Source of the DNA: Nanobdellota archaeon
GTDB lineage: Archaea; Nanobdellota; Nanobdellia; Pacearchaeales; GW2011-AR1
DNA length: 47,971 nt
NCBI GenBank assembly: GCA_043810695.1
Contig: JBDRNV010000008.1
Location: 1 to 47,971 of the forward strand
Direction of reading: 5' to 3'
Shown here: positions 2,309 to 22,030 of the stretch, piece after piece
How the letters are laid out: each line of letters opens with the position of its first letter
How positions within the stretch are numbered: position 1 is the first letter of the stretch
Translations under genes and position numbers: made by a program
Notes under the pieces: generated by a model
What the model was told of the DNA's origin: nothing
Database searches by the model: none
Seen by the model: the letters and a program-made list of their open reading frames with translations, nothing else

Positions 2309-2381
2309 TAGCCCCACCAGGATTCGAACCTGGGTCTCAGGCGCCAAAGGCCTGCATACTTGACCACTATACTATGGGGCT
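2309..2381 (-). tRNA. tRNA-Gln(TTG)
   Basis: Reverse complement AGCCCCATAGTATAGTGGTCAAGTATGCAGGCCTTTGGCGCCTGAGACCCAGGTTCGAATCCTGGTGGGGCTA folds as a cloverleaf; anticodon loop CT-TTG-GC; A1-U72 pair typical of archaeal tRNA-Gln. Confidence 0.95.
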
Positions 2382-7247: not shown

Positions 7248-8468
7248 ATGGAAATTATTGCTGATTTGCATATTCATTCCAAATATGCAAGAGCGACAAG
7301 CAAAAACATTTCAATAGAAAATCTTGAAAAATACGCGAGAATTAAAGGATTAAATCTGCTTGGAACAGGAGATTTTCAGCATGCATTAAGGAGAAAAGAA
7401 ATTGATGAAAAATTAACAGAAGATGATAAAGGAATATTATGGACAAAAGATGGATTTCCTTTTTTATGGCAGACAGAAATAAGTTTAATGTTTTTTCAGA
7501 ATGAAAAAAGAAGAGCTATTCATCTGCTTGTATTTGCTCCAAATTCAAAAACAGCTGATAAAATAACATTATATCTTAGCTCAAAAGGAAGAATTGATTA
7601 TGATGGAAGGCCTATATTTGGAATATCATGCACGCAGTTTGTCAAAGATTTAAAAGAGATAGATGATAAGATAGAGATTATTCCTGCACACTGTATGACT
7701 CCTTGGTTTGGACTTTACGGAAGTAAAAGTGGTTTTGATTCTATTAAAGAATGTTTTGGGGAGCAAGCAGATAAGATTTACGCTATAGAATCTGGAATAA
7801 GTGCAGACCCTGGAATGCTATGGAGAATTAATGAAAATGTTAATATTGTAAGTTTCAGTGATGCACATTCATTTTGGCCCTGGCGTATGGGCAGAGAAGC
7901 CACAATATTTGATATTGATGAATTAAGTTATGATAATATAATCCAAGCTATTAGAACAGGAAAAGGTTTGAAAGCCACAATAGAAACTCCTCCAACATAT
8001 GGAAAATATCACTGGGATGGGCACAGAAATTGTAATTTCTCATGCTCTCCAGAAGAAACCAAAAAGCTTAACAGAAAATGCCCTGTTTGCAAAGGAGATT
8101 TAACAATAGGTGTTGATTACAGAGTTGAAGAAATTTCAAAGGAAAAAATAGGATACAAAACTAAAAACGCAAAATCTTATCATTCATTAGTTCCACTTCA
8201 TGAATTAATCGCTATTAGCTTAGGAAGCACGCTAGCAAGCAAGAAAACAGGAGAGTTGTATAATTTCTTTATAGAAAGGCTTGGAAATGAGTTTAATATT
8301 CTTTTAAAGACAGAAAGAGAAGAACTGATAAAGATATTACCAAAAAATGAAAAGCTTGTTGAACTTATTCTAATGAACAGAAATAATAAACTACAGATAA
8401 AGCCTGGTTATGATGGAACATATGGTGAGATAGTATTAAGTGATAAACAAGCTAAATTGCCCATATAG
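7248..8468 (+). CDS. Endonuclease Q family PHP-domain DNA repair nuclease
   Basis: ADLHIHSKY, GTGD, IPAH, SDAHS, GKYHWDGHRNC, CPVC, PGYDGTYG. Confidence 0.85.
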   Translation: MEIIADLHIHSKYARATSKNISIENLEKYARIKGLNLLGTGDFQHALRRKEIDEKLTEDDKGILWTKDGFPFLWQTEISLMFFQNEKRRAIHLLVFAPNSKTADKITLYLSSKGRIDYDGRPIFGISCTQFVKDLKEIDDKIEIIPAHCMTPWFGLYGSKSGFDSIKECFGEQADKIYAIESGISADPGMLWRINENVNIVSFSDAHSFWPWRMGREATIFDIDELSYDNIIQAIRTGKGLKATIETPPTYGKYHWDGHRNCNFSCSPEETKKLNRKCPVCKGDLTIGVDYRVEEISKEKIGYKTKNAKSYHSLVPLHELIAISLGSTLASKKTGELYNFFIERLGNEFNILLKTEREELIKILPKNEKLVELILMNRNNKLQIKPGYDGTYGEIVLSDKQAKLPI

Positions 8469-11217: not shown

Positions 11218-12348
11218 ATGCGAGTTTTATTGGAAAAAGAATCTCGAAGAGAACTATTCAATTATTTAATGAAACAAAATAAAGTTTTCAACTTAATAGA
11301 ATTAGCAAAAAAAATGAATATTCCTTACAAAACAATAAACAGTTGGCGTTACAACTACAAAAAATATCTTCCTAATAATATTTTAAATGATTTTATAAAA
11401 AATTTAAAGATTTTGGATAAACAGCCAGATAACTGGGGGCAAATCAGGGGAGGAAAGATAGGAGGAAAGGAAAGTTCTAAACGGCTAAAAGAATTTTGGG
11501 GGAAAGAGAAATATCAAAAAATAAAGAAAGAGATTGGCAGAAAGGCAATTAAAAAACTTCAAAAGAAATATGGAATAGTTAAATTATCTCAAATGGCAAT
11601 TAATGGGAGATTAAAAAAGAGGAAAAAAAGAATTAGAGAATTAGAAGAAAAAAATAAAGAATTTTTTAGGGAACAGAAAATATTTTTGAATACAAAAGGC
11701 ATAAAATTTAGCAGGTATGATAAGATGAAGAACATCAAGTTGCCTTTTGAAATGTCATCTGAATTAGCAGAAGAAATAGGGATTCATCTTGGAGACGGAT
11801 GTCTTTCTTTTAATAGAAAATATTTTTCAGTTAAAACAAATAAAAAAGAAGAAAATTATATGATAAATTTTCTGTTTCCTTTATATAAAAAACTGTATAA
11901 TCTAGATTTAAAGTTAATGAAATTACCAAGCGTAGTTGGTTTCGAGATTTGCTCACAAACATTATTTGATTTTAAAAACAAAGTTTTAGGGATACCTTAT
12001 GGAAATAAGGTTGAGAAAATTGAAGTTCCTAAAGTAATAACAGAATCACAAAACAAAGAAATATACCGGGCTTTTATCAGGGGTTTATTTGATACTGATG
12101 GGTGTGTTAACATAATAAAATCAAAAAAGAATTATCCGGTAATAACCTTTACAATAAAATCTAAGAAGCTTATATCACAAACAAAAGAAATGTTGATAAG
12201 GTTAGGATTTATTCCTTATGCAGGAAAATGGAGAATAGACATAAATGGGAAATTTATGTTAAATAAATGGCTTGAAGAAATAGGTTCAAATAATCCAAAA
12301 AATCTTGTTAGATTAAAACAGGCGAGTGGTTCAACCAGGATAGAATAG
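11218..12348 (+). CDS. Free-standing two-motif LAGLIDADG homing endonuclease with N-terminal HTH-like region
   Basis: LAEEIGIHLGDG and FIRGLFDTDG motifs; LAKKMNIPYKTINSW HTH; no intein splicing motifs; last 29 nt overlap the tRNA-Arg(GCG). Confidence 0.88.
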   Translation: MRVLLEKESRRELFNYLMKQNKVFNLIELAKKMNIPYKTINSWRYNYKKYLPNNILNDFIKNLKILDKQPDNWGQIRGGKIGGKESSKRLKEFWGKEKYQKIKKEIGRKAIKKLQKKYGIVKLSQMAINGRLKKRKKRIRELEEKNKEFFREQKIFLNTKGIKFSRYDKMKNIKLPFEMSSELAEEIGIHLGDGCLSFNRKYFSVKTNKKEENYMINFLFPLYKKLYNLDLKLMKLPSVVGFEICSQTLFDFKNKVLGIPYGNKVEKIEVPKVITESQNKEIYRAFIRGLFDTDGCVNIIKSKKNYPVITFTIKSKKLISQTKEMLIRLGFIPYAGKWRIDINGKFMLNKWLEEIGSNNPKNLVRLKQASGSTRIE

Positions 12349-12393
12349 CTCCTTGCGGAGGAGTTGATCAGGGTTCAAATCCCTGCTCGCCTA
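12320..12393 (+). tRNA. tRNA-Arg(GCG), intact
   Basis: AGGCGAG/CTCGCCT acceptor, GTTC/GAAT D-stem, GCTCC-TTGCGGA-GGAGT anticodon arm, CAGGG-TTCAAAT-CCCTG T-arm. Confidence 0.92.
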
Positions 12394-16695: not shown

Positions 16696-19167
16696 TCAAG
16701 CCTCATCAACAACACCGGCATCTGTCACATTAAAGATAATTTCGTTTTCAGGAAGATTTGGAGAGTCTATTAGTTTTGCAACTCGACTGCCTGCTTTCCC
16801 TCTTCTCAAATATATTCTGTATGTTGAATTATGCACAATAAATCCGTTCGCAATATAATTCTCATGTGAAGGAACAGAGAAATCATAAAACAATTCTCTC
16901 TTCTCGTTATTTTTAATATCAATCTCTCTTATTTTCTCAAACCTAATCCCTGAGCTCAAAATTTTAAAGATAAATTCTATTTTTTGTTTCACTTGTCTGT
17001 CTTTAATTTCAACGTTCATTAAAGATTTGAAAGCCTTTTCAAGCTCGTTTCTACTAATCCATTGATAGTTTGAAGGTCTTGGTCTAATAATTTTAGAATA
17101 TTGCAACCCTGCTAATTCCAAAAGCTCTCTTAATTCTTTTCTTTTTATGGGCATCATTTCGTAAGAGTATTTTTCTTCAAGGATTTTAACGGCTTCTATC
17201 AGCCTTGCCTGTTTATCTACTGCTGTAAACCCTATCTGTAAATAGCCTTTAACATCTTTATCAATAATTCTCAGAACAGCCATTTTTTTGCTGCCAATAT
17301 CAAACTTGATTGTGCTTCTTATTCCCAGCCTAAGCAAAAACAATTGTAAGTATTGAAGAATTTTAGTTTGTTTCTGAGAAACTGAAATATATGCTCTCTT
17401 TTTATTTATATGCCCTTCTGCGTCAAAAAATCCTTTAATAAACCTGAGAACAACATCGTCTCTACTCTTTCCAACATAATTAAAAATATCATTAATAACT
17501 AAAACAAATAAATCTCTAATCTCCTTCGAATTAATAGACAAAGTATAGCAATTCTTATTTTTCATTTTACTTATATTTCCGGGGATGCTAAAAACATTTT
17601 TGAACAAAGAATTATAAAAATTCAAAACACCTAATCTTTCATCTCTGAATCTTAAACCTCCTGCCTCAAAATTTCCATCTCCGATAAAATATCCGAAAAT
17701 TTGAGCAAGTTGAGGGATCATAATTTCCGGCATAGCTAAATCCTTATATTTATTGGTATAAACTGGTAAAAGCTGTAGTTGTAATCTGCCTGAAAAATAG
17801 TTTTCTAATTTATTTAAAGTTTCAAAATTAGTTGGATAAGACTGGTTTAAAACTCTTCTAAATTGTCTTGCATTTATCCCAATTTTTTCACAAATTTCCT
17901 TTCTTGTTGTATTTTCTTTTTTTAATTCTCCTATAATTTTATTTGAATCTTTTTTAGAGATTAAACCAATTTTCTTAATATTCATAATAGGCAATCTTTG
18001 TTCTTCTCCTTCAATCTCTATTTTACCTGCTTGAGCAATAAAATCTCCGGCTTTCAAATCCTTAGCTTCTTTCTCAACTACAGAAAAATCCTCAATTGTA
18101 AAAAACCTGTGCAAAGAAGAGCAATTTATTTGATTATTAGTTTTAATAGTATAAGTCTTATCAATATTTGGATTAACAAATACAAATTCAGAATCAGCAT
18201 CATTCAATTTCATATTATTAAAATTATTTGATAAAACTTTTTCTTGCCCCATATTTTTAATTTCTTTTATTGAGCCATCTGCCAATTGTATTAAACTGTC
18301 TCCTGTCAAACAAGCATGTCCTACAATATGCCCGCCAATTGCTGTTGTTGGATCTCCAAAAATCTGTGCTGGATTTGCCATTACTTGATTTGTAACATAA
18401 ACAGCTAGATTATATGTCTCTGCAAGCTTCATAAGCTGATGAATATATCTGTTAAGCTTCTGCTGTCTGTCTGCAAGCTGCCCTCTTCCTGAGAATTCTG
18501 CACGGAAATGAGCTGTTAGTGAATCAATAATAAGAATTTTTATTTGTTCTCCATTTTTAATCATCTCTGAAATTTTATCAAGTAAAAGAATCTGATGGTC
18601 AGAATTAAAAGCTCGAGCAACAAGAATATTTTTCAAAACTTTCTCTGGATTTGCACCGAGTTTTTCTGCAATTTGTTTTATTCTTGCAGGCCTAAAAGTT
18701 CCTTCTGTATCAATGAAAACACATTTTCCATTTGCACCCCCTTTTTCTAAAGGAAACTGAACATTTACAGCAAGTGTCAGACCAACCTGGGTTTTTCCAG
18801 AACCATAAGCGCCGAAAGCCTCTGTTATTGCTCTCGATTCAACACCTCTTCCGCCAAGAAGAGAATCAAAATTTTTGCTTCCTGTTGTTATTGTAAGCAC
18901 GCTTTCTCTTTTTTTTGCATATTCTATTCCGTCCATAAATCCCAAGTCAAGCATGTTTCGTGCAGCCTGAATTATCTTTCTTGCAACAGCAGCGCTCACG
19001 CCTGCTAAATCAGATAAATCAGAAGGAGTCATTACTGCAATTGACATTAAATCATAAATTCCAGCTGCCTCTAACTTTGCAGAAACAGCAGGTCCAACAC
19101 CTGGTAAATCAGTAATCTTGGGTTCTGTAATTGCAGAAGCAGATTTTTCTTCCTCTTCCTTTACCAT
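16696..19167 (-). CDS. radA: DNA repair/recombination protein RadA, intein-containing (328 aa after splicing)
   Basis: HhH DLPGVG, Walker A GAYGSGKT, IDTEGTFRP, IIDS, TNQV, GGHIVGHA|STYRIYLR. Confidence 0.96.
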   Translation of the reverse strand: MVKEEEEKSASAITEPKITDLPGVGPAVSAKLEAAGIYDLMSIAVMTPSDLSDLAGVSAAVARKIIQAARNMLDLGFMDGIEYAKKRESVLTITTGSKNFDSLLGGRGVESRAITEAFGAYGSGKTQVGLTLAVNVQFPLEKGGANGKCVFIDTEGTFRPARIKQIAEKLGANPEKVLKNILVARAFNSDHQILLLDKISEMIKNGEQIKILIIDSLTAHFRAEFSGRGQLADRQQKLNRYIHQLMKLAETYNLAVYVTNQVMANPAQIFGDPTTAIGGHIVGHACLTGDSLIQLADGSIKEIKNMGQEKVLSNNFNNMKLNDADSEFVFVNPNIDKTYTIKTNNQINCSSLHRFFTIEDFSVVEKEAKDLKAGDFIAQAGKIEIEGEEQRLPIMNIKKIGLISKKDSNKIIGELKKENTTRKEICEKIGINARQFRRVLNQSYPTNFETLNKLENYFSGRLQLQLLPVYTNKYKDLAMPEIMIPQLAQIFGYFIGDGNFEAGGLRFRDERLGVLNFYNSLFKNVFSIPGNISKMKNKNCYTLSINSKEIRDLFVLVINDIFNYVGKSRDDVVLRFIKGFFDAEGHINKKRAYISVSQKQTKILQYLQLFLLRLGIRSTIKFDIGSKKMAVLRIIDKDVKGYLQIGFTAVDKQARLIEAVKILEEKYSYEMMPIKRKELRELLELAGLQYSKIIRPRPSNYQWISRNELEKAFKSLMNVEIKDRQVKQKIEFIFKILSSGIRFEKIREIDIKNNEKRELFYDFSVPSHENYIANGFIVHNSTYRIYLRRGKAGSRVAKLIDSPNLPENEIIFNVTDAGVVDEA
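16828..18312 (-). mobile_element. Intein (495 aa) with LAGLIDADG homing endonuclease and HTH-like insert
   Basis: Starts CLTGD; block B SSLHRF; ends YDFSV...NYIANGFIVHN followed by Ser+1; motifs GYFIGDG and KGFFDAEG. Confidence 0.93.
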
Positions 19168-19371
19168 AAACTTTCAATATAAAACCTGTTTATAAAGATT
19201 TTTTGCCTGCGTGATATATATTGCGTTCGCTCATTCCATCTCGCACATTGCCCTGTTATTAATTAATTTTTTGTCAAGCCAATATGCTCGCGCTCACAAT
19301 TAAGATAATATTGTTAATATCAATTCAACCATAATTAATATAATCAATATTTATACCAATTTTTTTATAAA

Positions 19372-19821
19372 TTAAAAAGTATCTTCATCAAAATTTTTTT
19401 TTGTCAAATCCTCTGGAACTCTATATTCTTCCCATCTAACTCTCTTTTTTTCTATTGTTTCCTTAAGATTTTTTTCCTGGGAAGAGAGCTTTGAATTAGC
19501 ACTTTTAACTTCAACAAAAACAACCTCATCAATTTTCTTTTCATCCATTCCTTTAAACACAATAAAATCAACAGGTTTTCCTAGAAACTTGCATTCTGTC
19601 GGAGAAAATTCAAAATCAGGTAGATAAGGAGCAAGTTGTTCTGAAAATTGTCCGCCTAAAACAGCTCGAGATTTTATGATAGCATCTTTTCTATGCTCTG
19701 GAATTTCTTTTTCCCAAAATTTATCTCTTCTTAAAGCACCAATTTTTATTCCAGCTAGATAAGCTAAAATTAATAGTATAAAAAAAACCAAAGCTAAAAC
19801 TATTGTCAATATTTCAACCAT
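19372..19821 (-). CDS. Endonuclease related to archaeal Holliday junction resolvase (PD-(D/E)xK), with N-terminal TM helix
   Basis: SRAVLGGQFSEQLAPYLP, FLGKPVDFIVF, FVEVKS. Confidence 0.85.
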   Translation of the reverse strand: MVEILTIVLALVFFILLILAYLAGIKIGALRRDKFWEKEIPEHRKDAIIKSRAVLGGQFSEQLAPYLPDFEFSPTECKFLGKPVDFIVFKGMDEKKIDEVVFVEVKSANSKLSSQEKNLKETIEKKRVRWEEYRVPEDLTKKNFDEDTF

Positions 19822-19938
19822 TTTTATATTGTTATTAGTTAAGATAGTTTAAACTTTTTTATATTGTGTTTCACTCTTAATATTATATTTAATATATATC
19901 TAGTTTATTGATGTTTCTGTTATTTTCTAATAAAAATT

Positions 19939-20242
19939 GCCCAAAAAGATAGACTATTCGAAAAGCAGGATTCTCATTAAGAGGATTCCTGTTGCAGTTG
20001 AGGTTAAGCCTGTTATCGTTAGCGTTAAACCTGGCAACTTAAAATAGTCAGTTTATTTCACAAAAATTTTAATTTTTGTGTCTGGAATCTTGCCAGCACA
20101 AAGCAAATATAAAATTTGCACACTGGAGCTTCTCGCAAGTTGCTCCTGAATTTTATAACTTAAAATAAACATTAATATGTCTTAATAAACTGGCATGTAG
20201 TCCATCCATTCTTTTCTTGCTCAGAGAAAAGAACTTTTGGGC
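19939..20242 (-). ncRNA. Putative structured DGR template RNA (~304 nt) containing the TR
   Basis: 5' GCCCAAAA pairs with 3' TTTTGGGC; at least five internal hairpins and two long-range stems; BRE/TATA at the expected distance upstream; no ORF-track ORF. Confidence 0.7.
19955..20039 (-). repeat. DGR template repeat (TR)
   Basis: 85-nt ungapped copy of 20344-20428, rich in AAC/AAT codons (reads VARFNANDNRLNLNCNRNPLNENPAFRI in the VR frame). Confidence 0.95.
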
Positions 20243-20263
20243 GAAAAATATAAGAAAAACTTG

Positions 20264-20278
20264 TTTAAATTTTTTTCG
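20264..20278 (-). promoter_or_regulatory. BRE-TATA promoter of the putative TR RNA
   Basis: CGAAAAAAA-TTTAAA on the - strand; TATA element 22-27 nt upstream of the predicted 5' end at 20242. Confidence 0.6.
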
Positions 20279-20328
20279 TTTTTCATATCAAAGAATTTTT
20301 CAATATATCAGCGAGCTAATCAGTCAGC

Positions 20329-21012
20329 TTAATCAACTTCCAATACCCGAAAAGCAGGATCCTCACTAAGAGGATACCCGAGGCAGCTGAGGACAAGCCC
20401 GCTATCGCAAGCGTCAAACCTGGCAACTCTTTCATTTTTTTGTGATGGCTTTGAATTTAATCTCCAAATACAACTATTAGTTCTATTAATCCATTGAGAA
20501 ACTTCATTTATTTTAGTGGTATCTTTTGTTCCTAAAAGTTGTTCTAAAACATTTGTGTCAGAAAGTGCATCTATAGAACTATCTGGACCAGTAACATTGG
20601 TATCTATTGAATATTCATCTGAAGTTTTATAATTATGTATAATCTTGTCTTCGTTTACTGGATTATAAATTATTCTTGTTAATGTATTCGGATATTTTCT
20701 AAAATCTCGTGCAAAAAACTGCCTTAGTTTTTCAGCTTCTAATGAGTTTTCATTTCTAAGTTCATATGCTCTTGTTGCAATAGCCCAAATTAAAGGTATA
20801 TCTGTTGGATGAGGATTTCCTTTTTGTTTTTCAATTTCATAAAGTTCAGCAAGTTTTTCTTGATTCATTGAAGAAGTCATTTGCTCAAAAAGTCTGTAGG
20901 TCCCTGTTTGTCCTTTGTAAAAAACATCAGGAATAAGGAAACGTTTTTCAGCTTGCCAAGTCAAGATAGGAGATTCGTATATAATTCCTCGTTCTTTTAT
21001 TTCAGTTTCCAT
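20329..21012 (-). CDS. DGR target protein with hypervariable C-terminus (probably C-type-lectin-like fold)
   Basis: VR at the extreme 3' end; C-terminal AFRV resembles the GFR strand of CLec-fold targets; no signal peptide or TM helix. Confidence 0.88.
   Translation of the reverse strand: METEIKERGIIYESPILTWQAEKRFLIPDVFYKGQTGTYRLFEQMTSSMNQEKLAELYEIEKQKGNPHPTDIPLIWAIATRAYELRNENSLEAEKLRQFFARDFRKYPNTLTRIIYNPVNEDKIIHNYKTSDEYSIDTNVTGPDSSIDALSDTNVLEQLLGTKDTTKINEVSQWINRTNSCIWRLNSKPSQKNERVARFDACDSGLVLSCLGYPLSEDPAFRVLEVD
20344..20428 (-). repeat. DGR variable repeat (VR)
   Basis: 16 mismatches to the TR, all at TR adenines (11 A>G, 4 A>T, 1 A>C); 0 of 58 non-A positions differ. Confidence 0.95.
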
Positions 21013-21088: not shown

Positions 21089-22030
21089 CTACTTTTCTAG
21101 TCCTTTTATAACACCATCAGCATCAACTTCTTTCAATTCATCAACAACAAGTTCAAGGTTATTGAAAAAGGCGTTATTTCTTATATTTCCAGAGAAAAAC
21201 ATCTCTTTTCCTAATATAGATTGTTTTTGTTCTAATAATTTTTCAGGATTTTCAAGTTCTGTAATGCCTAGATTATTAAGTTTTTCGTGAAATAAAACAG
21301 CTCTTATAGTGCCTGTTCCATCATCAAGAACAATAGTTGCAACAGCTCTTTTTTCAGGAATAACTTTTTCATGAGTTTTGCATACAAATACATCTCCTTC
21401 TTTCTCAATTTTTCTGTTGCATTGGGGGCAGACATTAAAAAATCTGGGTTCAAAAAATTGAACAACAAATGCTCTTGTACCAACTGTTTCTCCTTTCTTA
21501 AAATCTGAAATTTTTCTTTCCCGAAAAATCTTTTGAGTTATTACATTCTCTAAATTTTCGTTACTAATTTTTATTTCTGAAAAATTTCCTAAATGAAGCT
21601 CATTGTCTCTCATTGCTGCATTTGATATCTCAATAACACTTCCTTCTTTTATTTCTCCTTTCTCAATTAAAGCAACATGATTTGTATCCCAAAGAACTGT
21701 TTTAATATTTGAAGAATCATCAGCCATAAAAAGATTAACAACTTTTGATTCATCCCCTTTTTTTGTTTTAAATGTTCTTACAGGCGATATGCTAATTACT
21801 TTTCCTATAACATTCACTTTTCTCATACTAGGAAGAAGCTCTCCTATCTTAAGTTTATCATGTTCAAAAGAAATTCCAAGTTCAGCTGCTACAACCTGCG
21901 CAGCTCCCTCTTTACTTATAAGTCCTGAAAGTTTTGTTCTTTTTGCTTCTATTCTGCTATCAATCTCCTCTTTTGTAAGATTTGCAGCCTTTGCTATTTT
22001 TTCAATAATTCGCTCATAATTTCCAATCAT
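21089..22030 (-). CDS. rpa: Replication protein A / OB-fold ssDNA-binding protein with Zn finger
   Basis: LSGLISKEGAAQVVA N-terminus, OB fold (DDSSNIKTVLWD), CPQC...CKTH, LDDGTGTIRAVLF. Confidence 0.85.
   Translation of the reverse strand: MIGNYERIIEKIAKAANLTKEEIDSRIEAKRTKLSGLISKEGAAQVVAAELGISFEHDKLKIGELLPSMRKVNVIGKVISISPVRTFKTKKGDESKVVNLFMADDSSNIKTVLWDTNHVALIEKGEIKEGSVIEISNAAMRDNELHLGNFSEIKISNENLENVITQKIFRERKISDFKKGETVGTRAFVVQFFEPRFFNVCPQCNRKIEKEGDVFVCKTHEKVIPEKRAVATIVLDDGTGTIRAVLFHEKLNNLGITELENPEKLLEQKQSILGKEMFFSGNIRNNAFFNNLELVVDELKEVDADGVIKGLEK

Follow-up and report, generated by a model that had tools for sequence, protein, structure and literature searches.

A repeat pair of a diversity-generating retroelement with its own RT-16 template RNA in a Nanobdellota archaeon: a probable long-lived satellite without an adjacent reverse transcriptase

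The window analysed here is a stretch of 47,971 bp that makes up the entire contig C8 of a Nanobdellota archaeon genome, labelled G000. In its middle part it carries components of a diversity-generating retroelement (DGR), namely a target gene with a C-terminal variable repeat (VR), a promoter-like box and a template RNA of ~304 nt (20242 to 19939), in which a structured scaffold of the Rfam family RT-16 is joined to a template repeat (TR). These parts lie together in a unit of ~1.16 kb, roughly from 21075 to 19918 on the (-) strand, and no reverse transcriptase (RT) is found among them. We consider it probable that this unit has long persisted as an RT-less satellite, a template module that an RT encoded elsewhere in the genome serves in trans. 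An earlier note on this DNA, made from the letters of the window, had offered a satellite served in trans by a distant RT as one of two explanations. That proposal has gained support from two RTs on other contigs, from the scaffold that they share with the window, from the insertion of the unit between conserved neighbours and from the recurrence of such units without an RT.

The repeat pair, its two targets and the site of the unit

On the (-) strand, the TR (19955-20039) and the VR (20344-20428) form an ungapped pair of 85 nt at an offset of 389. As counted by script, the two differ at 16 positions, every one of them a TR adenine (11 changed to G, 4 to T and 1 to C), which amounts to 16 of the 27 adenines and none of the 58 non-adenines of the pair. 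The probability that all 16 mismatches would hit the 27 adenines among 85 positions is 1.7e-10 (hypergeometric). The coordinates, the offset and both counts given in the earlier note were thereby reproduced, its two peptide readings of TR and VR agree with the sequence and with the translation of the open reading frame (ORF), and its interpretation of the pair as a DGR accords with mismatches confined to TR adenines in 16 cases out of 16.

One aspect of that count has to be corrected. At the 3' boundary of the repeats, AAT in the TR stands opposite GGT in the VR in 16 correctly anchored pairs in all, those of the window, of contig C7 (see below) and of 14 others. Because this boundary recurs across pairs, the A-to-G changes at TR 19957-19958 (VR 20346-20347) are fixed and do not stem from random mutagenesis, which reduces the stochastic changes to 14. 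Thus all 16 changes do lie at TR adenines, as claimed before, but two of them belong to a fixed boundary difference. By analogy, GGGT at the VR and GAAT at the TR may be comparable to the initiation-of-mutagenic-homing sequences IMH and IMH*, respectively. The difference between IMH and IMH* is a boundary difference of the Bordetella phage element and gives directionality.

The features discussed in the following are, by position:

21089-22030: RPA-like OB-fold gene (rpa), flank of the unit
20329-21012, (-) strand: target gene, a 227-aa ORF
20344-20428, (-) strand: VR, 85 nt at the 3' end of the coding sequence, ahead of the final four codons and the stop
20345-20348, (-) strand: VR-side boundary GGGT, the consensus at VR ends; its TR counterpart is GAAT at 19956-19959
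20264-20269, (-) strand: TATA-like box TTTAAA with an A-run before it, 27 nt upstream of the first base of P0a
20235-20242, (-) strand: 5' strand of P0a, GCCCAAAA, the outer closing helix of 8 bp; pairs with 19939-19946 (TTTTGGGC)
20198-20207, (-) strand: 5' strand of P0b, GGATGGACTA, the inner closing helix of 10 bp; pairs with 19947-19956 (TAGTCTATCT)
20039-20241, (-) strand: Rfam RT-16 RNA (RF03019), 203 nt, adjoining the 5' end of the TR
20059-20120, (-) strand: three-hairpin insertion domain in the 3' part of RT-16, extra relative to the Rfam consensus; hairpin H2 is CTGG-CAAGATT-CCAG; forms in the minimum free energy (MFE) fold
19955-20039, (-) strand: TR, non-coding, with 27 A and nine AAY (Asn) codons in the VR frame
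19939-19956, (-) strand: 3' strands of P0b (19947-19956) and P0a (19939-19946), then a T5 run at 19932-19936
19372-19821: resolvase-like gene, PF10107 ('endonuclease related to archaeal Holliday junction resolvase', E 1.7e-35)
C7 7820-7904, (+) strand: second VR, in a gene for a 227-aa paralogue, 78% identical

The VR falls within the last part of the ORF 20329-21012, in line with its earlier placement at the 3' end of a gene. The 227-aa target matches no Pfam family and no NCBIfam family, and a profile search against PDB sequences gave nothing below E=0.058; an Atlas search returned a weak lead to Lcl_C (0.79). In DGR targets, the VR is typically borne on a C-type lectin (or Ig) fold. Homologues of the target make up 58 clusters of hypothetical proteins from Nanoarchaeota/Nanobdellota, and in an alignment of 53 homologues the C-terminal ~30 residues are hypervariable. 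No further VR variants were found among the members of the target protein clusters.

The TR of the window serves two VRs, one in the window and the other on contig C7. Compared with the window TR, all 15 mismatches of the C7 VR are at A (P=9.7e-10), so that 15/27 A are changed and 58/58 non-A positions are identical. Ahead of the VR, the C7 and C8 genes are 84% identical over 584 nt, and 79% identical at third codon positions. The chance that both VRs would match the TR at 58/58 non-A positions is 4.7e-5 at the gene-wide rate and ~0.03 at the local rate of ~6% near the VR. The two contigs resemble each other over a region that begins ~70 nt upstream of the ATG and reaches ~35 nt past the TR, with no similarity beyond; this region ends where the RT start codon sits in RT-linked cassettes.

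On C7, the RT-16 and most of the TR are deleted, and the last bases of the TR together with the 35-nt post-TR flank (with P0b' and P0a') follow directly after the post-VR sequence (7905-7990; L008). Since C7 keeps this 3' remnant of the TR and the same 35-nt flank, the ~1.16-kb unit was already without an RT at the time of duplication. An unused non-coding TR would drift, yet both VRs match the TR at all non-A positions. This indicates that homing continued after the RT-less state had been reached, i.e. in trans, and it is our main argument. The other explanation in the earlier note, a recently orphaned DGR, is disfavoured, because C7 shares the RT-less 3' boundary although its gene has diverged by 16%.

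As had been noted before, the unit is located between rpa and the resolvase-like gene, and the family matches of both flanking genes agree. The gene next to rpa is the resolvase-like gene in six of the 14 congeners inspected and radA in the other eight, and no target, RT or other DGR part lies between those genes in any of the 14. The gap from rpa to the next gene is mostly ~10-170 nt in the congeners and ~600 nt in four of them, G051 has ~3.3 kb of other sequence in the rpa interval, and in the window the distance from rpa to the resolvase-like gene is 1,267 nt. Comparison of the rpa-radA interval among relatives, which the earlier note had proposed, therefore finds the DGR unit in none of the congeners; the unit of the window is an insertion into conserved synteny. 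Inspection of the unit ends by eye revealed no target-site duplication.

These flanks also bear on the view that the window holds an ordinary DGR whose adjacent RT was lost through misassembly or binning, a view that we regard as very improbable. The assembly is indeed fragmented, comprising 669,792 bp in 24 contigs that are 79.7% complete and 0.5% contaminated, but the module lies ~20 kb from both ends of the 47,971-bp contig, and the flanking genes are adjacent in congeners retaining the resolvase-like gene. An independent Logan contig (run X1, 19300-20482) and a JGI contig both bridge the TR into the downstream gene, the former with 0 differences, and the same RT-less layout occurs in other genomes with 2.2-3 kb of downstream sequence. 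Misassembly, named earlier as a possible source of the missing RT, is thus contradicted by contigs that join the TR to the downstream gene.

Two further features of the stretch are recorded here. An intein that contains a LAGLIDADG homing-endonuclease domain splits the radA gene at 16696-19167 on the (-) strand (823 aa; Rad51 2.1e-89, Intein_splicing 3.2e-23, LAGLIDADG_3 4.5e-20); RadA matches span ~2.4 kb in some congeners and ~0.85 kb in others, and judging from these lengths the intein appears to be present in some of them and absent in others. Apart from RT-16, only two tRNA genes, at 2309-2381 (-) and 12320-12393 (+), exceed an Rfam gathering score in the window.

Reverse transcriptases of the genome and the structure of the template RNA

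In agreement with the earlier statement that no RT lies beside the repeat, contig C8 has no RVT_1 match at E <= 1. Over the whole assembly, RVT_1 matches at this threshold are found only at C10:1869-2486 and C5:69214-69858. Both RTs are intact, with 338 and 347 aa, stop-free and bearing a YVDD box, and they are 84% identical to one another. Each belongs to a cassette with the layout target-RT-16-TR-RT on a single strand. In NCBIfam, these RTs score below every cut-off (e.g. 142 vs 300 bits for the group II intron model), and there is no DGR-specific RT model. The lack of an Avd gene, first remarked for the window, extends to the whole assembly, where PF05635 has 0 matches at E <= 10. No recognisable accessory or Avd-like ORF was seen in the ORF lists of the RT-linked cassettes, whose small RT-adjacent ORFs were not scanned against any family library.

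A genome-wide scan for single-base-restricted repeat pairs yielded four TRs and six VRs. The TR on C10 has one VR, that on C5 has two, that on C2 has one VR and no RT, and that on C8 has the two VRs of the window and C7. The search of the genome proposed in the earlier note has thus returned two intact RTs, on C10 and C5, and a second VR of the window TR. The second RT-less unit of the genome (G000:C2:27263-28450, L035) encodes a 266-aa target with an internal VR, and 10 of its 11 TR/VR mismatches are at A. Its VR is followed by a ACCAGCGAAGCTGGT hairpin, as in the C10 cassette, and an SMC gene lies downstream.

RT-16 has exactly four matches in the genome, one directly 5' of each TR. Their scores are 106.9 bits on C5, 76.5 on C10, 76.0 on C2 and 62.3 on C8, the last against a gathering score of 50 and with model positions 1-158 of 158 covered. 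RT-16 adjoins the TR in all four genome copies and at each RT-16 locus with a detected TR/VR pair, and it is probably the DGR template scaffold in these archaea. The module had been described before as only target plus TR; this description was incomplete, as the 203-nt RT-16 RNA, two closing helices and a promoter-like box are also present. Identity between the RT-16 core of the window and those of the other copies amounts to 85% for C2, 77% for C10 and 60% for C5. As the C8 core is nearest to C2, the two form one RT-less lineage, closest to the C10 type. This greater similarity of scaffold suggests that the C10 RT may be the likelier partner of the window RNA.

Alignment of 15 cassettes revealed that P0a and P0b are conserved blocks outside the Rfam model. 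In their general form, the 5-12 nt just 5' of a conserved CACGCC pair with the bases after the TR-end GAAT to give P0b, and P0a joins the start of the RNA to the nucleotides that follow P0b. The sequences of the helices differ among cassettes, as seen in C10 (GTCCTGACA/TGTCAGGAC) and C2 (TGCCTTGACT/AGTCAGGGCA). Covariation of P0b was tested in 36 RNAs having both anchors, among which 24 distinct sequences occur. At least 5 bp form in register in 30/36 RNAs, and at positions 1-7 of the 24 distinct sequences 96% of the cells are canonical, versus 19-45% in slid registers. In this comparison, the observed register benefits from the way in which the 3' anchor was set; a permutation control, which is free of that bias, gave on average 83% and at most 89% canonical cells with permuted partners (1000 permutations).

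Two folding approaches gave consistent pictures. RNAalifold, applied to 10 window-type satellites, independently predicts P0b, P1 and P2, and 17 of its 63 pairs keep pairing through two-sided changes. The MFE fold of the window RNA (19936-20245) has -83.3 kcal/mol with z = -5.1, and none of 100 shuffles was as stable. It holds P0a, P1, P0b, P2 and three extra hairpins, and the TR is situated inside the closed loop.

The three extra hairpins make up the insertion domain at 20059-20120, which recurs with compensatory changes in G000:C2, G002:C2, G413:C6 and G068:C1, the H2 of the window and these copies having the form CWGG-CAAGATT-CCWG. All five copies with this domain are without an RT. Other RT-less copies bear different insertions there, and 7/70 RT-linked matches also reach at least 190 nt; overall, RT-less RT-16 matches are longer, with a median of 199 vs 162 nt. 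A pattern search for the hairpins with one mismatch allowed gave mostly noise, 28 of 30 inspected loci being unrelated, and only its exact matches (G000:C2, G413:C6 and the window) represent the RNA. Complementarity of the H2 loop CAAGATT to the TR, just 6-7 bp in the window, was taken as chance.

Upstream of the RNA, a TATA-like box is found 27-30 nt from the 5' closing helix in 21/27 RNAs inspected, whether RT-linked or RT-less. It lies at -42 to -44 in four further RNAs, whose RT-16 match begins ~14 nt inside the helix as judged by eye; of the remaining two RNAs, one has a box only at -32/-45 and the other only at -10. We infer that the box may serve as the promoter of the template RNA. An oligo-T terminator on RT-less RNAs was also considered and is unsupported (5/13 vs 3/11 of the RT-linked RNAs).

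On the reading that we favour, the template RNA, consisting of the RT-16 scaffold and the TR, would be transcribed from its own promoter and would then be bound in trans by the DGR RT of C10 or C5, more likely that of C10. The bound RNA would be copied into adenine-mutagenised complementary DNA, which would replace the VR in the C8 gene and in its C7 paralogue, while the fixed boundary of GGGT (VR) and GAAT (TR) would keep the transfer one-way.

Recurrence of RT-less units and the question of activity

Within the genus, 42 genomes were sampled, of which 16 have an RT and 15 have RT-16, with 22 RT-16 matches. Six of these 22 matches are RT-less target-RT-16-TR units with A-only pairs; two are in G000, and the others are G002:C2, G054:C6, G054:C3 and G011:C6. 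At G023:C82, no RT was found in 1.5 kb downstream and no TR/VR pair was detectable. All genus genomes with RT-less units have an RT on another contig, the RT of G011 having stop codons.

Similar units were observed in the family, for which 151 genomes were sampled at about one per genus. There are 99 RT-16 matches in 59 genomes, and RVT_1 is present in 57 genomes; it lies within 2.5 kb of RT-16 in 70/99 cases and not in the other 29. Twenty of these 29 loci were inspected, with the presence of an RT checked by tblastn (E <= 1e-3). In seven of the 20, an A-only TR/VR pair lies next to RT-16 and no RT occurs in 2.2 kb or more of downstream sequence; four others reach a contig end. At G368:C9 (L095), G445:C3 (L098) and G193:C5 (L101), RT-16 and TR are followed by just the first 60-100 codons of an RT, and these truncated units may be intermediate stages of RT loss.

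A profile of the target family built from 53 homologues detected 29 places in 24/151 genomes, and RT-16 adjoins 14 of them. Where the downstream sequence is long enough to judge, the unit is RT-less in G000:C8, G323, G182, G192, G068, G111, G421, G158 and G121; it is RT-linked only in G452 and G447, and it reaches a contig end in G464, G218 and G170. The RT-less target-RT-16-TR architecture is thus kept in at least eight other genera, and a metagenome contig (L112) holds a further RT-less case of the window target family. In G121, a frameshifted RT of another cassette is located 3.2 kb upstream of the RT-less unit. The region concerned (G121:C6:26000-31463, L106) shows RT-16, TR and a frameshift-split RT, and 2.2 kb later a window-type unit with 16/16 mismatches at A; such a tandem layout could be a route by which satellites arise.

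When 10 satellites were compared, the TR was the best conserved long stretch, with a mean identity of 0.76; the segment from GAAT through P0b' reached 0.80, and the insertion domain had the lowest value, 0.38. Among these 10, the TR of the window has the most A (24/80 aligned columns) and jointly the most AAY triplets (nine).

Several observations weigh against a satellite that is served in trans from within its own genome. As G000 is a fragmented bin of 24 contigs, the presence of the RTs and C8 in one cell rests on binning. Moreover, G130, G149 and G323 have RT-less units and no RVT_1 match anywhere, at 91, 89 and 83% completeness. The latter finding would fit a unit served by an RT outside the chromosome of the cell, in a virus, a plasmid or the host of the episymbiont. 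We judge this improbable, because an RT may be unassembled in genomes that are 83-91% complete and because two intact RTs are encoded in G000 itself, in cassettes built on the same scaffold family. In addition, RVT_1 is present elsewhere in 8/9 genomes with a window-type RT-less unit, compared with 57/151 overall, although the genomes are related and this is no clean test.

Other points of this kind concern the state of the unit and of its relatives. The RT-16 of the window scores lowest of the four in the genome and departs by a C-to-T substitution from the near-invariant motif ACACGC. The DNA hairpin 3' of its VR is weak (-1.8 kcal/mol, z = 0.17). A stable hairpin or cruciform in the DNA immediately downstream of the VR is a feature of the BPP-1 literature. 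The hairpin 3' of the VR in the C10 cassette is strong, at -8.1 kcal/mol and with a GAA loop, and a hairpin is present after the VR in most such cassettes. Some sister satellites look decayed: among the 20 inspected RT-less loci, six have no detectable TR/VR pair and three keep just an N-terminal RT remnant, and the TRs of G068 and G111 are A-depleted.

Finally, the same sequence was sought in other assemblies. The nine sequencing runs found are represented by assembled Logan contigs, which give the consensus only, so that minor VR alleles are invisible in them. Contigs of three runs show 0 differences (X1 19300-20482, X2 19772-20515 and X4 20310-20460), with VR and TR identical in X1 and X2 and the VR identical in X4, and from the VR onwards, across the downstream gene, the JGI contig L107 shows 100% identity; these identical contigs possibly all come from one site. 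At consensus level, all four other assemblies therefore carry one and the same VR, and the current activity that the earlier note had argued for finds no backing in them.

Some features of these assemblies stand apart from the comparison. At the end of contig L107, the first ~170 nt of the target coding sequence differ from both C8 and C7, which reflects chimeric assembly or else a 5' end acquired by recombination. Run X3 has a coverage gap at 20365-20435 and an ENA contig (P0001) ends at the VR start; such breaks were not accepted as evidence of heterogeneity. A Logan contig of X3 (depth 14.1, shorter side 31 letters) joins 20040 to 20330 and skips the 289 nt of spacer and RT-16, which would put the TR directly after the target stop. 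TTAAG is found at both edges of this junction, which could represent a deletion variant, another organism or an artefact. Over 19950-20040, contigs of X1 and X2 contain a related TR with eight differences and a different 3' flank. These contigs are much deeper than the window sequence (up to ~144 in X2), and accordingly a relative with a near-identical TR is abundant in the X1 and X2 samples.

An inactive relic, i.e. a unit that formerly worked with an RT in cis or in trans and whose TR/VR match was left from the last homing, would be in keeping with the monomorphic VR, the low RT-16 score and ACACGC substitution, the weak VR-proximal hairpin and the decayed relatives, with their RT remnants, missing VR pairs and A-poor TRs. 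Nevertheless, we consider it unlikely. A neutral non-coding TR should drift, yet each VR matches it at 58/58 non-A positions; all RNA helices are intact, with sequences of their own; the window TR is the richest in A and has the joint most AAY among the 10 satellites; and the RT-less architecture has been maintained in at least eight other genera. We thus retain the long-lived satellite served in trans as the probable reading, on which the unit may still be active at present.

Comparison with known systems and significance

The BPP-1 DGR (mtd-VR, avd, TR, spacer RNA, brt) resembles the unit of the window in the A-specific difference between TR and VR, in the position of the VR at the 3' end of the target and in a fixed TR/VR boundary difference. 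In contrast to BPP-1, the unit of the window has no RT and its genome has no Avd match. Furthermore, the structured RNA of the unit precedes the TR on the 5' side, and two long-range helices clasp the TR, whereas the BPP-1 spacer is 3' of the TR; the VR-proximal hairpin of the unit is weak. The two systems also share a TR that is part of a structured non-coding RNA, which in BPP-1 confines the RT to the cognate template (PMC6182149).

Targets that are not adjacent to the RT were reported in 45/372 DGRs, e.g. in Treponema denticola, and avd-TR-brt works in trans from a plasmid (PMC5758913). As with the C7 VR here, one TR serves a distant VR in these remote-target DGRs. However, their TR stays beside the RT and the VR alone is remote, whereas in our case a distinct TR, together with its own scaffold RNA, lies far from every RT. 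The main text of PMC5758913 makes no mention of second or multiple TRs or of orphan units. In Thiohalocapsa PB-PSB1, incomplete DGR loci have lost the RT and yet diversified, and an RT and/or TR acting in trans was considered (PMC10907252). There, the TR that orphan VRs match belongs to another, complete locus, RT genes were lost recently (through transposons or miniature inverted-repeat transposable elements, MITEs) and intact variants coexist. The RT-less unit of the window, by contrast, has a unique TR and scaffold and is conserved without an RT across genera. Cassettes with several TRs and one RT are known as well (PMC6642488), but their TRs lie beside the RT, while each extra TR in G000 belongs to an unlinked unit with its own target and scaffold.

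The RT-16 and RT-10 motifs were defined by proximity to RT genes and were given no function, a DGR role being speculated upon (PMC5737381). With no RT on its contig, the RT-16 of the window lies outside that definition by proximity. A text search for RT-16 or RF03019 returned only Rfam and JAR3D listings. In the DPANN and candidate phyla radiation (CPR) DGRs of Paul et al. 2017, which come from organisms of the kind studied here, many genomes reportedly have several DGR loci. We found no description in the literature of a separately encoded TR with its own scaffold that is kept RT-less across genera, in a search that left aside supplementary tables and Paul et al. 2017, so that earlier reports are possible.

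Surveys of DGRs anchor on the RT gene and seek an adjacent TR, and one of them states that remote parts are missed (PMC8144416). With the RT gene as the starting point, a survey would also overlook a TR located far from every RT, and units of this type would go uncounted. In the archaeal family studied here, this may concern up to 29 of 99 scaffold RNAs, which have no nearby RT. If one RT serves several unlinked templates, it would be the RNA scaffold, and not linkage to the RT, that sets the target of mutagenesis. The orphan Rfam motif RT-16 would then gain a function and a testable structure, in which the TR is looped between two helices, and a small Avd-free RT using separate templates would be of interest as an attractive component for programmable mutagenesis in vivo.

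More tentatively, and as a possibility that we rate well below the satellite reading itself, the RT-16 RNAs may constitute a one-enzyme, many-template system. In such a system, RT-less template genes, each comprising promoter, target, scaffold and TR, would persist over long times, be copied to new loci as ~1.16-kb units and recruit a shared, Avd-independent RT of 340 aa in trans, and the extra hairpin domain of RT-less copies may be an element for recruitment in trans. A tiny genome could in this way diversify several unrelated surface proteins with one RT gene, and the finding thus bears on how very small symbiont genomes may obtain cheap variation of several surface proteins.

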